Of a stretch of DNA of 51,509 nt, positions 2,476 through 43,437 are shown piece by piece. This stretch comes from a virus (lineage: Duplodnaviria; Caudoviricetes): positions 1 to 51,509 of the IMG/VR virus record IMGVR_UViG_3300028590_000551; one strand, given 5' to 3'. A program made the position numbers and the translations under genes. Within the stretch, counting starts at the first letter, position 1. Every line of letters starts with the position of its first letter. The notes beneath the pieces were generated by a model that saw nothing but the letters and a program-made list of their open reading frames with translations, searched no databases and was not told the DNA's origin.

Positions 2476-3615
2476 GTGAACGCGCCGGACATCGCGCCAC
2501 TGCCCGATGGCGTCGCCGAAGCGCTGGCAGGGCTCCCCAATGGCCGCGAGTTGCCCGCGCACCGCGCGTGGCTGCTGGCGAGCGAACCGCGCTTCGCCGA
2601 GGTCATGCGCCGCGTGGAGCGGCGCGGCCTGCCGCCGCGCAGCCTGGCCGAACTGTGGCTGTGGCTGGTCCACCTGACCATCGACTGCGGGTCACGGCCG
2701 GCGACCACGGGGCAGTCGTACGGCCGCACGGCCGGCCGCTTCCTGGCGTGGGCCGCCTGCAACGGCATCGACTTCACGCAGGCCACGCTGGAAGACCTGA
2801 ACCGCTGGCAGCGCTGGCTGGCCGTGGAATGCAAAAACGGGAATACGTGGCGTGCACAGCAAGTGCAGGCGCTACGCAACTTTTTCGACTGGCGCCGCGC
2901 CTGCGGCCTGGCGAAGGCGAACGCGGCGGCCGACCTGCAGGGCCCGAAGGTCAAGCCGAAGCCGGCGAAGAAATACACCGACGACCAGCTGCGCGCCCTG
3001 TTCGCCGCGATCGCCAGCGCCAACCCGCTGCGGTCGGTGCGGGACCGCTGCGCCACGCTGCTGCTGCTGACCACAGGGCTGCGCCGCGAAGAGCTCGCCA
3101 GCCTGAAGCTGGCGCACCTGGAACTGAGCGCGGCACGCGGCGTCGTGCGCATCGAAGGCAAAGGGGCCAAGGAACGCGAAGTGCCATTCGAAGGACCAGT
3201 GGTCACCGCCCTGCACGAATGGCTGGCAACCCGCGACGGCCTGCCGTTCGACATCAACCGCGATGCGGTGTTCGTCGCGCTGACCGGGCCCACGCAAGGA
3301 CACGCGCTGGCGCTGCGGAGCTTCGAAGCGATGGTCGGCAAGCACGCGAAGGCGGCGAAGCTGCGCGACTGGGGTATCCATCGCTTCCGCGTGACGTTCG
3401 CCACGCAGCTGTACGACGACGGCGCGGACATCGAAACCATCCGCGCCCTGATGGGACACGAAAGCATCGAGACGACGCGCGGCTATCTCGCCGTGTCGGA
3501 GCGCGCGCGACGCACGCGCCTGAGTTCAGCGCGCCAGCACCGCGTGCTGGGAACCAAACCAACAGGCACACCCATGTGGGCGCGCCTGGCAGCAGGGGAA
3601 CTGTCGAGTGATTGA
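2476..3615 (+). CDS. Tyrosine recombinase 1 (XerC/D-like)
   Basis: TGLRREEL, GKGAKER, HRFR and MGHESIETTRGY give a full R-K-H-R-H-Y set. Start uncertain (GTG 2476 or ATG 2434). Confidence 0.92.
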   Translation: MNAPDIAPLPDGVAEALAGLPNGRELPAHRAWLLASEPRFAEVMRRVERRGLPPRSLAELWLWLVHLTIDCGSRPATTGQSYGRTAGRFLAWAACNGIDFTQATLEDLNRWQRWLAVECKNGNTWRAQQVQALRNFFDWRRACGLAKANAAADLQGPKVKPKPAKKYTDDQLRALFAAIASANPLRSVRDRCATLLLLTTGLRREELASLKLAHLELSAARGVVRIEGKGAKEREVPFEGPVVTALHEWLATRDGLPFDINRDAVFVALTGPTQGHALALRSFEAMVGKHAKAAKLRDWGIHRFRVTFATQLYDDGADIETIRALMGHESIETTRGYLAVSERARRTRLSSARQHRVLGTKPTGTPMWARLAAGELSSD

Positions 3616-3997
3616 CGAAATCCGATTCAGTGATGCCGGCGAGCGCGCCACCGAGTTTGAACGCCGGCTGGTGGCGCAAGCCGGTGCAGCGGAAAACGAA
3701 TGGCTGGACCTGGCGCGTCGCATGATGGCCGTGGTGGGTGAAGACGCCGGCCTGCGCGCCTTCCTGGTGCTGCTGGACGAAATGGGCGGCGGCGAGGTCA
3801 GCGTGTGCAAGCGCGGCAAGTTCTTCCAGCGTCTGTGGACCGCGGAGCGTGATGCGCTGATCGTCAACATGGCGTCGCGCGAATCCGACCCGTGGCCGCA
3901 GGCGGAGATCGCCCGGCTGCTGGGAGTATCCGCGCCGTACGTGCACAAGGTGCTGCGGCGGAAACTCGGGCGGGAGACGCGAGGGGGCACGGCGTGA
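3608..3997 (+). CDS. Mor/C-like transcription activator (HTH)
   Basis: GGGEVSV..ERDALI..QAEIARLLGVSAPYVHKVL follows the Mor layout (GG-strand, R-x-x-x-I, C-terminal HTH). Confidence 0.6.
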   Translation: MIDEIRFSDAGERATEFERRLVAQAGAAENEWLDLARRMMAVVGEDAGLRAFLVLLDEMGGGEVSVCKRGKFFQRLWTAERDALIVNMASRESDPWPQAEIARLLGVSAPYVHKVLRRKLGRETRGGTA

Positions 3998-4737
3998 TAC
4001 GAACCCATCCCGTGAGCAAATCCATCATCCGCGAACGCAAGCCCCTGACCGCTGCCCAGCTGCAGCAGCGGCGCGATGCCGCGAAGAAAAGCACCGGCCC
4101 ACGCACCATCGAAGGCAAGGCGCGTTCCAGCCGCAACGCGTGGAAGCACGGCTTGAACAGCGCCATCCACGTTTCGCACTTCGACAGTGGGCTGCAGTCG
4201 CTGCTGGGCGCCACCGGCAAGCCGTGCCAGACGACGTGCCCGAAGTATCCGTGTTCGCTGGTCGATGAAGGCCAGACGAAGGCGGGCGGCAGCTGTCTGG
4301 ACAAGCAGGTGTACGTGCAGGCGTTCACCGCGATCATCGACGCGCTGCAGTCAGGGAGCATGGAAGGCATGCACGGACTGATGGCGGCGGAGGTATCGGC
4401 TGCGCTGCAGATGCTGCACGAACTGCGGTCGACGGTTTCCACGCAGGGTCTTGTCATCGGCATCCCGATGGTGACCGACGAAGGCAAGGTGGTCTGCGAC
4501 GCCAAGGGCGATCCGGTCATCGGCAAGTACGTCGCCAATCCCGGCTACCCGATGATGATCAAGACACTGGAAACGCTGGGCATCAGCCTGCCGGAACTGC
4601 TGGTCACGCCACAGGCGAAGGCCAAGGCCAAGGTGCAGGAGGAAGCCACCGACGCTATGCAGACCGTGCTGGGCGGCATCTTCCAGCGCGCTGCGGCAGC
4701 AAAGGGCGCAAAGGCGCTGCCACCAGGTGGTGGCTGA
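3994..4737 (+). CDS. Putative terminase small subunit
   Basis: STGPRTIEGKARSSRNAWKHG motif (HGGxSTG-related); lies directly before terL. Confidence 0.6.
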   Translation: MIRTHPVSKSIIRERKPLTAAQLQQRRDAAKKSTGPRTIEGKARSSRNAWKHGLNSAIHVSHFDSGLQSLLGATGKPCQTTCPKYPCSLVDEGQTKAGGSCLDKQVYVQAFTAIIDALQSGSMEGMHGLMAAEVSAALQMLHELRSTVSTQGLVIGIPMVTDEGKVVCDAKGDPVIGKYVANPGYPMMIKTLETLGISLPELLVTPQAKAKAKVQEEATDAMQTVLGGIFQRAAAAKGAKALPPGGG

Positions 4738-42027: not shown

Positions 42028-42440
42028 GCCGAGGGCATCAGGTAGTGGTGGTCACCGGCCGGCTGGGTGCAGATCCGGCAGTGAAGGCGCCACCCAGCGG
42101 CGGCATGGTGGCCGAACTGCGCGTGGCGGTCAGCGAGTCCTACAAGGATCGCGCCGGCAACCGCACGGAACACAAGGAGTGGATACGCATCAAGGTGTTC
42201 GGCCAGGCTGCGGAAGCCGTCCAGCGCTTCCTGAAGAAAGGCGGCCTAGTAACGGTGCAGGGCAGGTTGCACACCGAAAAGTGGACGGCAGGCGACGGCA
42301 GCGACCGCTACAGCACGTGGGTCTATGCCTCGCCCAGCGGCGTGGACATCCACCATCAGCCGGAACACGAAAGCACGCGGGCAGCGCACAGGGGACGCGC
42401 TGCAACGCCCGAACCGGAACCGGCCGCCCCAACCGCGTAG
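42024..42440 (+). CDS. ssb: Single-stranded DNA-binding protein (acidic tail lies beyond a TAG, to 42473)
   Basis: GRLGADP, VAVSE.YKD, EW, KG..V.V.GRL.T.KW, DRY.T. Confidence 0.9.
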   Translation: MSRGHQVVVVTGRLGADPAVKAPPSGGMVAELRVAVSESYKDRAGNRTEHKEWIRIKVFGQAAEAVQRFLKKGGLVTVQGRLHTEKWTAGDGSDRYSTWVYASPSGVDIHHQPEHESTRAAHRGRAATPEPEPAAPTA

Positions 42441-42462
42441 GACTGGGTGGACGATGACGACT

Positions 42463-43437
42463 TCAGGTTCTGACCGCCGGCAGCCGCTTGGAACGCGGGT
42501 GATGCGCAGCAGCGGTGCGCAGCGTGGTGATGTCGACGCCGAGGTAATGCGTGGTGGTGTCAGCATCAGCGTGGCCCAGCAGCTGCGCCAGCGCCATGAT
42601 GTTTACGCCGCGCTTGTGCAGTTCAGTCGCGAACGCTGCGCGCAGCAGGTGCGGGTAATGGCCGGACCACGGCCGCCCGGTGTAGGCCGCTTCCAGGCGC
42701 GCGAAGCCGCACGCCAGGCCCAAGGCGCGACGTGCATACCGGTTGACCACGACCCACACGCTGCGGCCGTCGCGGAGCGCCTTTCCATGGCGCGTCACGA
42801 ACAAGGCGCTGCGCTTGCCTGGCCGCACCGTGGCGCGCAGGCGCAGGTAAGTCTGCAGGAGGCCGTACCAGGACGGACCGAACGGCACCAGGCGGTCGAC
42901 GCCGCCTTTCCCGCGGACGTACAGGAAGCCATCGATGCGCACGCTGCCAAGTTCCAGCGTGGCCAATTCGCTGGCGCGCAGGCCGCACTGGTAAAGCGTG
43001 GCCATGATGAAGTGATCCCGAAAGCCCACGAACGTGGACAGGTCCGGCGCCGCCAGCAGCAGGCCCACTTCGTGATCCGACAGCGCCCGCGGCAATCGCT
43101 GCGGTGCACGCTTCTGGCGTGGGTAGCCATCGGGCTGCCAGGCGTCCGGATCGGCGACCTTCAGCCAGTTGAACCACGTGCGCAGGGCCGACAGTTCCAG
43201 GTTCAACGACGCCTGTTTCAGCTGGTCGCGCGTGCGCCGCGTGGCCACGTAGCGTGCCACCGGGTCCAACTCGTCGGGCACGTGCACCGCGAACGCCGCA
43301 TAGCGCGACACCGTCGCGCGGTACGCACGCACCGTCGCCGGGCTTCGACCCATGCTGCGCAAGGTGATGACGAAGCGATCCAGCAGCCGGTCAATCTGAC
43401 AATATCCGTGTCTTAGCACCACCAACGGAAATCCCAC
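42463..43437 (-). CDS. Tyrosine recombinase 3, att-proximal integrase (XerC/D-like)
   Basis: RLPRALS, RD.....LY..GLRASEL, GKGG..R.VP, PHLLR.AFAT, LLGHAD..TT..Y; adjacent to attR. Start uncertain. Confidence 0.92.
   Translation of the reverse strand: MGFPLVVLRHGYCQIDRLLDRFVITLRSMGRSPATVRAYRATVSRYAAFAVHVPDELDPVARYVATRRTRDQLKQASLNLELSALRTWFNWLKVADPDAWQPDGYPRQKRAPQRLPRALSDHEVGLLLAAPDLSTFVGFRDHFIMATLYQCGLRASELATLELGSVRIDGFLYVRGKGGVDRLVPFGPSWYGLLQTYLRLRATVRPGKRSALFVTRHGKALRDGRSVWVVVNRYARRALGLACGFARLEAAYTGRPWSGHYPHLLRAAFATELHKRGVNIMALAQLLGHADADTTTHYLGVDITTLRTAAAHHPRSKRLPAVRT

Follow-up and report, generated by a model that had tools for sequence, protein, structure and literature searches.

We find that a prophage of about 43 kb (about 170–43535) in a 51,509-nt stretch of viral DNA (IMG/VR record IMGVR_UViG_3300028590_000551, Caudoviricetes; the whole stretch is called the window below) encodes four site-specific recombinases, three of the tyrosine type, here named Rec1, Rec2 and Int, and one of the serine type, here named Ser. 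The four genes are intact, vertically inherited core genes under strong purifying selection, which is as strong as that on terminase and capsid. The prophage belongs to a widespread, unnamed family of tailed phages, and this family targets the chromosomal dif site at the replication terminus. Elements that target dif and phages with several recombinases are already known; this combination appears new.

In the textbook view, temperate phages need one integrase and a directionality factor, and against this one-integrase view a whole family is found to keep four apparently active recombinases under terminase-strength selection. Moreover, in accounts so far, dif is the target of small elements that borrow the enzymes of the host. 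A tailed phage with its own XerC-like enzyme widens that picture, and it bears on how a host tolerates 43 kb in its dimer-resolution site.

Four intact recombinases

Rec1, Rec2 and Int match the Pfam family PF00589 with E-values of 2e-32, 4e-17 and 1e-20 (112.7, 62.9 and 74.7 bits against a cut-off of 27.1), Ser matches PF00239 (2e-35, 122 bits), and PHROGs and NCBIfam agree with Pfam on three tyrosine recombinases and one serine recombinase. The motif list of tyrosine recombinases comprises a catalytic R, K, H-x-x-R, H/W and Y, and R, K, HxxR, H and Y are present in all three enzymes. The nucleophile of Ser lies within YIRVST, where S10 and R8 are invariant among relatives, and the catalytic residues of all four enzymes are invariant in alignments of relatives reaching 35–45% identity. 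An earlier reading of the window, made from its letters (the original prediction), had listed these same four enzymes with apparently intact catalytic residues, and it is borne out on this point.

The three tyrosine enzymes are mutually only 25–26% identical and lie on long separate branches in the tree. By Pfam they consist of SAM-like core-binding and catalytic domains only, with no lambda-type arm-binding domain. They share their fold with the host enzymes XerC and XerD, to which Int is closest in the tree. On the profiles of the XerC and XerD equivalogs (TIGR02224 and TIGR02225, cut-offs 335 and 330 bits), Int reaches at most 159 bits, Rec1 144 and Rec2 97. With scores of 89–159 bits the phage tyrosine recombinases are, by the cut-offs, not XerC or XerD orthologues, unlike the host's own XerC (367 bits) and XerD (356 bits), which in the Pseudoxanthomonas lysogen G006 both score above cut-off.

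It had also been held that Rec1, Rec2 and Ser are translationally coupled to their neighbors. This stands for Rec2, which shares ATGA with both neighbors, for Ser, which overlaps the cro-like gene by TGATG and the following open reading frame (ORF) by ATGA, and for the 3′ side of Rec1, whose stop overlaps the GTG of the next ORF by 8 nt; it does not stand for the upstream side of Rec1, where there are 337 non-coding bases. The further idea that each functional module has its own recombinase holds only loosely: a small helix-turn-helix (HTH) gene lies between Rec1 and the terminase genes, and in the circular form Rec1 is about 2.3 kb from attP.

Conservation and selection across the family

A search of viral contigs with Rec1 gave 13 loci, and from a profile search the best 80 of 119 matches were considered. 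The recombinases were typed by tblastn in 20 records, namely five first-tier viral records, the Microcystis phage MACPNOA1, three bacterial genomes (Pseudoxanthomonas sp. LjRoot168, an unpublished Lysobacter metagenome-assembled genome and Luteimonas terrae), six second-tier records and five third-tier records, the last spanning 48–67% G+C. Rather than lacking the extra recombinases or carrying them as decaying genes, the relatives keep them, as all four are found in 15 of the 20 records (G002, G004, G005, G006, G007, G008, G010, G017, G018, G020, G023, G024, G025, G027 and MACPNOA1). Three records (G001, G003, G016) are without Int only, and each of them ends before the position of Int. The remaining two are complete genomes: G026, a 35-kb genome with direct terminal repeats, keeps Rec1, Rec2 and Ser and has no Int, and G011 keeps Rec1 and Ser and has neither Rec2 nor a Xer-like Int, carrying an unrelated larger integrase (at least 443 aa) where the Xer-like Int would be expected.

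Eight further records were counted by Pfam only. Seven of them have three tyrosine enzymes and one serine enzyme, and the eighth (G022, 69% complete) has one of each. Ser is present in all 28 records that bear a Rec1-type gene. Five records reached by weak similarity to Rec2 or Int (G028–G032), in which the status of Rec1 is not established, were left out of these counts; three of them are fragments (37–70% complete) with Ser and one to three tyrosine enzymes, and G028 and G032 are without Ser.

The order Rec1, HTH gene, ORF and large terminase (TerL) is constant in the 13 loci examined (13/13). In the recombinase tree Rec1 forms one clade with a support of 100 in the Shimodaira–Hasegawa-like approximate likelihood ratio test (SH-aLRT), as does Rec2, with 17 of 18 rows in the clade and the remaining row miscalled and half-empty; Int lies near the host XerC and XerD, at the shortest distance of the three. 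Rec1, Rec2 and Int each show three tiers of relatedness, the same as the phage genes. Between the window and the G006 prophage, the ratio of nonsynonymous to synonymous substitution rates (dN/dS) is 0.039 for Rec1, 0.028 for Ser, 0.059 for Rec2 and 0.127 for Int; the comparison genes give 0.038 (TerL), 0.127 (capsid) and 0.097 (portal). Because order and tiers are the same and dN/dS is low, we regard the recombinases as resident genes and not as insertions, in keeping with the original prediction.

An apparent decay of two recombinase genes in G020 was dismissed, since the reported stops lay in over-long 5′ extensions and both genes are intact. One relative, G025, carries a fifth recombinase of the tyrosine type (C1:36215-36991) directly beside Int, which groups with the host XerC on a long branch.

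Integration at dif

The prophage is flanked by attL and attR, which share a 15-bp core, and the Int gene starts 75 nt from it. Read on the minus strand, both sites have TGCCTA as the spacer. In attR it is preceded by a XerC-type arm of the host and followed by a TTATGT arm of the phage; in attL the phage arm GCGTAAGCTAA precedes it, and the TTATGT arm that follows is the host's. In the corresponding attP, a phage-specific arm occupies the position of the XerC arm; the 6-bp spacer is that of the host, and the XerD-type arm reads TTATGT. This mimic of dif, in which the spacer is shared, one arm is TTATGT and the other is a phage arm of the GCGTAAGCTAA type, is found in every relative with a readable att, whether this was read as att junctions (G002, G004, G006–G008, G010, G020, G023) or as attP (G005, G017, G024–G026, MACPNOA1). 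The spacer varies from host to host and the type of the phage arm is constant, (G/C)TAA(A/G)C. The original prediction had placed the third tyrosine recombinase at an att site, which is borne out; that this enzyme is the integrase, and Xer-like, is supported as well.

When the three whole host genomes were scanned with a 15-base dif pattern (at most two mismatches), one, one and two sites were found, and the attR of the prophage was among them each time; G007 and G008 have no other full dif-like site, and G006 has one more. In G006 dnaA lies at 10-1317 of the 3.97-Mb contig and the prophage at about 2.05–2.10 Mb, opposite dnaA, which is the terminus. One metagenome contig (run X2) spans the attR of the window unchanged.

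Because Int adjoins the dif-mimic attP and the prophage sits in dif, we take Int with considerable confidence to be the integrase. The pattern of the arms makes it probable that Int binds the phage arm, taking the part of XerC next to the host XerD, and attR would stay usable as dif.

No excisionase was recognized in a scan of part of the small ORFs, which agrees with what had been noted before. Within the window, imperfect inverted repeats of about 25 bp (43455–43480 and 205–228) flank the reconstituted attP core; by eye they have no obvious counterpart in the attP regions of G005 and G026.

The dif-like site of the Int-less G026 (L193:8304-8331) is made up of a phage-type arm, TGTATA and TTATGTTAAAT, and is found some 700 nt past Rec2, in a gap rich in A+T. 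The site must be usable by another enzyme, or else G026 is defective.

A second dif-like site, with the spacer CGTCGC, is present in the window at 45108–45135, 1.6 kb to the right of attR and inverted. The 98%-related Pseudoxanthomonas lysogen also has a second site (G006:C1:2036879-2036899), about 15 kb to the left of attL and oriented as attR, and the left flank of the window (1–170) has no match to the G006 genome. This suggests rearrangement or further elements around dif. Inside the prophage no further dif-like sites were found.

Rec1 and the element upstream of it

For Rec1 we prefer the predicted start at the GTG at 2476 over a longer form beginning with the ATG at 2434, as this ATG is not retained by relatives and falls within a non-coding element that is conserved. 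The structure model of Rec1 (mean predicted local distance difference test score, pLDDT, of 85; low in the first ~20 and last ~40 residues) resembles XerA, XerH, Cre and Brujita Int, that is, a two-domain enzyme with an N-terminal helical extension and no arm-binding domain.

Just upstream of Rec1, at 2426–2443, is the 18-mer CTCGAAAAATGGGAAGGG, which reads CTCGAAAAATGGGAGGGG in most relatives. It precedes Rec1 in 30 of 32 loci, several of them near-duplicates, where the neighboring proteins have diverged to 42–50% identity, and the window and two host genomes each contain exactly one copy, in every case at the prophage. The 18-mer may be a cosN, a promoter element or a site for Rec1. A second conserved motif, ACCCCCCCT, lies about 50 bp further upstream (2364–2381). 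The region also holds a C-run, an IHF-like site and repeats that differ by host, being GTGGAAC in the window and other words in relatives. In the window, CGTGGAACA occurs as inverted 9-bp copies on either side of the IHF-like site, about 200 bp from each other. Ultra-conserved 12- and 14-mers shared by half of 20 genomes proved to be GC-rich chance words or terminase codons and gave no new site.

At 2160–2175, just past the stop of the ORF at 1197–2138, we observe the motif ATTGCGCGCAAAC, which is kept with variations in all five first-tier relatives.

Ser and Rec2

Large serine recombinases are longer than about 400 aa and have a complete recombinase domain, and the zinc ribbon and coiled coil of the large serine integrases recognize and pair att sites. 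Ser consists of the catalytic domain, the long helix and the first part of this recombinase domain, with no zinc ribbon and no coiled coil. PF07508 matches at profile positions 17–51 of 102 only, below cut-off, and the structure model stops after three short helices. Both sequence and model match the first ~250 residues of large serine integrases such as Bxb1, phiC31 and TP901-1, with the catalytic domain, long E-helix and first recombinase-domain part aligning over about 245–260 residues. Unlike these integrases, Ser has only 249–271 aa in all relatives (14 relatives) and is encoded far from att.

Ser directly follows the first early gene wherever this is recognizable (in the window, in its near copy G006 and in MACPNOA1), and in the compact genomes the CII-like gene and Rec2 come immediately after Ser. 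In the window Rec2 sits in an early cluster with RdgC, a zinc-finger ORF and a clamp-like gene.

Roles of the four enzymes

As an overall explanation we lean towards a division of labor among four catalytically active enzymes, only one of which is an integrase. Since Rec1 persists when Int is replaced or lost, it would have a job of its own on phage DNA. We tentatively suggest that Rec1 is a simple enzyme of the Cre/Xer type that is made with the packaging genes and acts on a phage-borne site, and, with similar reserve, that it might convert phage circles between the monomer and multimer states, in the service of packaging or cyclisation; the candidate site is the single-copy 18-mer upstream, unless this element is cos. 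For Ser and Rec2, early functions clustered with the CII-like gene, a role at the stage of decision or excision is conceivable, as is action on replicating circles.

Several points weigh against this division of labor. Of the five third-tier genomes, only one has the 18-mer beside Rec1, and the inverted arms of this element comprise only 6 bp (CCCCTC/GAGGGG in relatives) around 9 bp, which is short for the core of a tyrosine recombinase and equally compatible with cosN or a promoter. Around Ser (26800–30200) no convincing repeats or target site were found, the best pair lying in a segment absent from most relatives. The loss of Rec2 together with the Xer-like Int in G011 fits a partner model, though as a single case, and the Int-less G026 keeps a dif-like site. 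The timing of the enzymes in the phage is deduced from gene order. Finally, no recombination products of Rec1, Rec2 or Ser were seen in the contigs of four metagenome runs (X1–X4), which covered 24001–44000 and gave only short-sided, unreliable joints, all but one with sides of fewer than 30 letters and that one with 38.

The alternative that survives best is a heteromeric machine of the Xer type, in which Rec2, Rec1 or both are partners of Int at attP, attL or attR, for instance as a phage surrogate of XerD that completes the second strand exchange without FtsK or gives integration and excision their direction without an excisionase. All three tyrosine enzymes are Xer-like simple recombinases, attP is a two-arm mimic of dif, the scanned ORFs held no recognizable excisionase, and Rec2 is early and clustered with the CII-like gene; furthermore, G011, where an unrelated integrase replaces Int, is also without Rec2, and in the Int-less G026 Rec2 is the recombinase gene nearest the dif-like site. 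However, Rec1 and Ser persist where Int is replaced (G011) or absent (G026), and Rec2 persists in G026, and these natural variants argue that the parts of Rec1, Ser and Rec2 are separable from that of Int. The low mutual identity and long separate branches of the three proteins, and the position of Rec1 beside the packaging genes with its own conserved upstream element, also speak against partnership, and the TTATGT arm copies the host XerD arm and so points to the host XerD rather than to a phage surrogate. We therefore regard such a machine as possible but doubtful.

A more ambitious form of the division of labor, which we think improbable as a whole, would be a full set of recombination tools owned by the phage and centered on the Xer/dif system of the host, with four catalytic recombinases doing four jobs in a 43-kb phage. 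Int would replace XerC and so give the phage entry to dif independently of FtsK; the early operon, with the CII-like gene, would supply Rec2 and the truncated serine enzyme to set direction or to excise in place of an excisionase; and Rec1 with the 18-bp site would be a Cre/lox-like device made with the terminase that produces packageable multimers or recloses incoming DNA.

It is quite unlikely that Ser is a DNA invertase or resolvase acting on a genetic switch, whether in the immunity region or at another place, and Rec1 a FimB-like invertase of the ~300-bp region upstream of it. Ser does match invertase families weakly, and the inverted copies of CGTGGAACA with the IHF-like site between them would suit such an invertible region, but the GTGGAAC repeats are not kept, other repeats taking their place in relatives, and none of the aligned relatives shows an inverted form. 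Nor are there convincing inverted repeats around Ser within 26800–30200, where the best pair is in the segment that most relatives lack, and the contigs, over 24001–44000, showed no long-sided strand-changing joint.

The original prediction had also raised the possibility that recombinase folds are reused as regulators, and Rec1 is indeed beside a small HTH gene and Ser beside the cro and CII-like genes. A purely regulatory or architectural function of the extra recombinases, as DNA-binding proteins without catalysis, is nevertheless very unlikely, given catalytic residues that are invariant down to about 35% identity (35–45% across the enzymes) and dN/dS values of 0.03–0.06. Least credible of all is a mosaic artefact, in which the genes would belong to distinct small elements inside the prophage, for example satellites or arrays of elements at dif: dif sites are known to collect tandem elements, by the passages on this point in PMC5357621, and there is the second dif-like site 1.6 kb to the right of attR, but the prophage has no such site inside, order and neighbors are the same in phages of 48 to 67% G+C, and the recombinases share the three tiers of relatedness of the phage genes.

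Relation to known systems

The Cre/loxP system of phage P1 consists of a simple two-domain tyrosine recombinase, encoded near the packaging start, and a short conserved site beside its gene. Rec1 likewise lacks an arm-binding domain, adjoins packaging genes and has a short conserved element beside its gene. Sites of the loxP kind have two long inverted arms and a spacer of 6–8 bp between them. The candidate site has only 6-bp inverted arms; the prophage, moreover, is integrated and not a plasmid.

Integrative mobile elements exploiting Xer (IMEX) are, in the passages concerned, small filamentous phages, satellite phages or islands that have no recombinase and borrow the host XerC and XerD (PMC5357621). 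Of the features that define them, the present family shows integration in the chromosomal dif and a dif-like attP, which is a partial mimic of dif (central region and one arm), and one of the junctions probably stays a usable dif. It departs from them in being a tailed phage of 35–45 kb with its own Xer-like integrase, Int, and in the arm that diverges from dif, which is the XerC-side arm and is replaced by a conserved phage arm.

Tyroviruses (~160–170 kb) owe their name to a conserved set of three Xer-like recombinases, of which one is encoded among the structural genes; the roles of the set were left open in the passages concerned, and a plasmid-prophage stage has been proposed for them (PMC9703825). 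The Psychrobacillus phage Perkons is described as having three tyrosine enzymes and one serine enzyme, the serine enzyme being the working integrase and the roles of the others likewise being left open (PMC13245101). Like these phages, the family described here has several tyrosine recombinases with one among the late or structural genes. By the account in those passages, however, Tyroviruses and Perkons are much larger phages of the Bacillus type with no reported targeting of dif, and the genes are not homologous modules. In the literature within reach, supplements excluded, we found no paper on this phage family or on a tailed phage that uses its own integrase at dif.

The family is tractable, since one isolate, MACPNOA1, has been deposited and some cultured bacteria of root and soil are lysogens. 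For genome engineering, too, there would be candidate tools here, in recombinases that are simple and use short sites and in a serine recombinase that is minimal by nature.

Organization of the prophage and related records

The prophage is that of a temperate siphovirus; the window has a G+C content of about 65%, and nearly all prophage genes are on the plus strand (Table 1). The left end holds, in order, attL, an N6-adenine methylase gene, an unassigned ORF and the 337 non-coding bases. The packaging and virion genes begin with Rec1, a 129-aa HTH protein, a 281-aa ORF and a divergent large terminase, and continue with a portal fused to a minor head domain, a protease, capsid, tail tube, tape measure and a J-like fiber. 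The immunity and early operon opens with a cI-like repressor on the minus strand, the cro-like gene, Ser and a CII-like activator, followed by RdgC, Rec2, the zinc-finger ORF, the clamp-like protein, a C5 methylase and a single-stranded DNA-binding protein (SSB); Int, on the minus strand, and attR close the right end.

Table 1. Coordinates in the window of the recombinases, att sites and neighboring features.
Feature	Position	Strand	Remarks
attL	170..197	-	Phage-specific arm, 6-bp spacer TGCCTA, host XerD-type arm (minus-strand reading); layout recurs in G006–G008
N6-adenine DNA methyltransferase	244..1200	+	
ORF	1197..2138	+	No family match; partly conserved among relatives
Conserved non-coding region	2139..2475		Contains the 18-mer and the ACCCCCCCT motif
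Rec1	2476..3615	+	Two-domain Xer-like tyrosine recombinase with extra N-terminal helical extension
Small HTH protein	3608..3997	+	Coupled to Rec1; small terminase or late activator
Conserved ORF	3892..4737	+	No family match; always between HTH gene and TerL
Large terminase, divergent	4737..6614	+	25% identity to one annotated TerL
cI-like repressor	28251..28659	-	
cro-like HTH gene	28829..29062	+	Opens early rightward operon
Ser	29062..29856	+	264-aa serine recombinase
CII-like transcriptional activator	30955..31557	+	
RdgC homologue	32672..33610	+	
Rec2	34161..35156	+	Xer-like tyrosine recombinase, coupled on both sides
Sliding-clamp (DnaN)-like protein	35901..36977	+	
SSB	42024..42440	+	
Int	42463..43437	-	Most Xer-like of the three; very probably the integrase at dif
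attR	43508..43535	-	Host XerC-type arm, spacer TGCCTA, phage TTATGT arm; probably the host's dif

The large terminase has no Pfam or PHROG family match and is known by its position and its distant similarity to a single annotated TerL; at 44–80% identity it is the best-conserved protein of the family. For the HTH gene that follows Rec1, a Mor-type late activator is one candidate identity; PF08765 is silent across the window at E-values up to 1, and the PHROG match is weak (1.8e-4). A small ORF on the minus strand (27845–28256) with a lipoprotein-like signal peptide begins 5 nt past the stop of the cI-like gene on the same strand, and may be a lysogenic-conversion or exclusion gene.

Compared with deposited phages by megablast, the window gave no match or one of 79 bases only, and MACPNOA1 (KY697807.1) is the sole deposited isolate of the family. 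It is filed as a cyanophage; all named relatives found are Xanthomonadales (prophages in three genomes, and protein names), and the filed host may be wrong. A fifth recombinase in the window was also considered and rejected: MACPNOA1 labels its homologue of 13734–14729 as XerD, and by Pfam this is the tail tube protein. In the same record the portal is labeled glycerone kinase and the protease diphosphorylase, and the ends of the record are a 77-bp assembly overlap.

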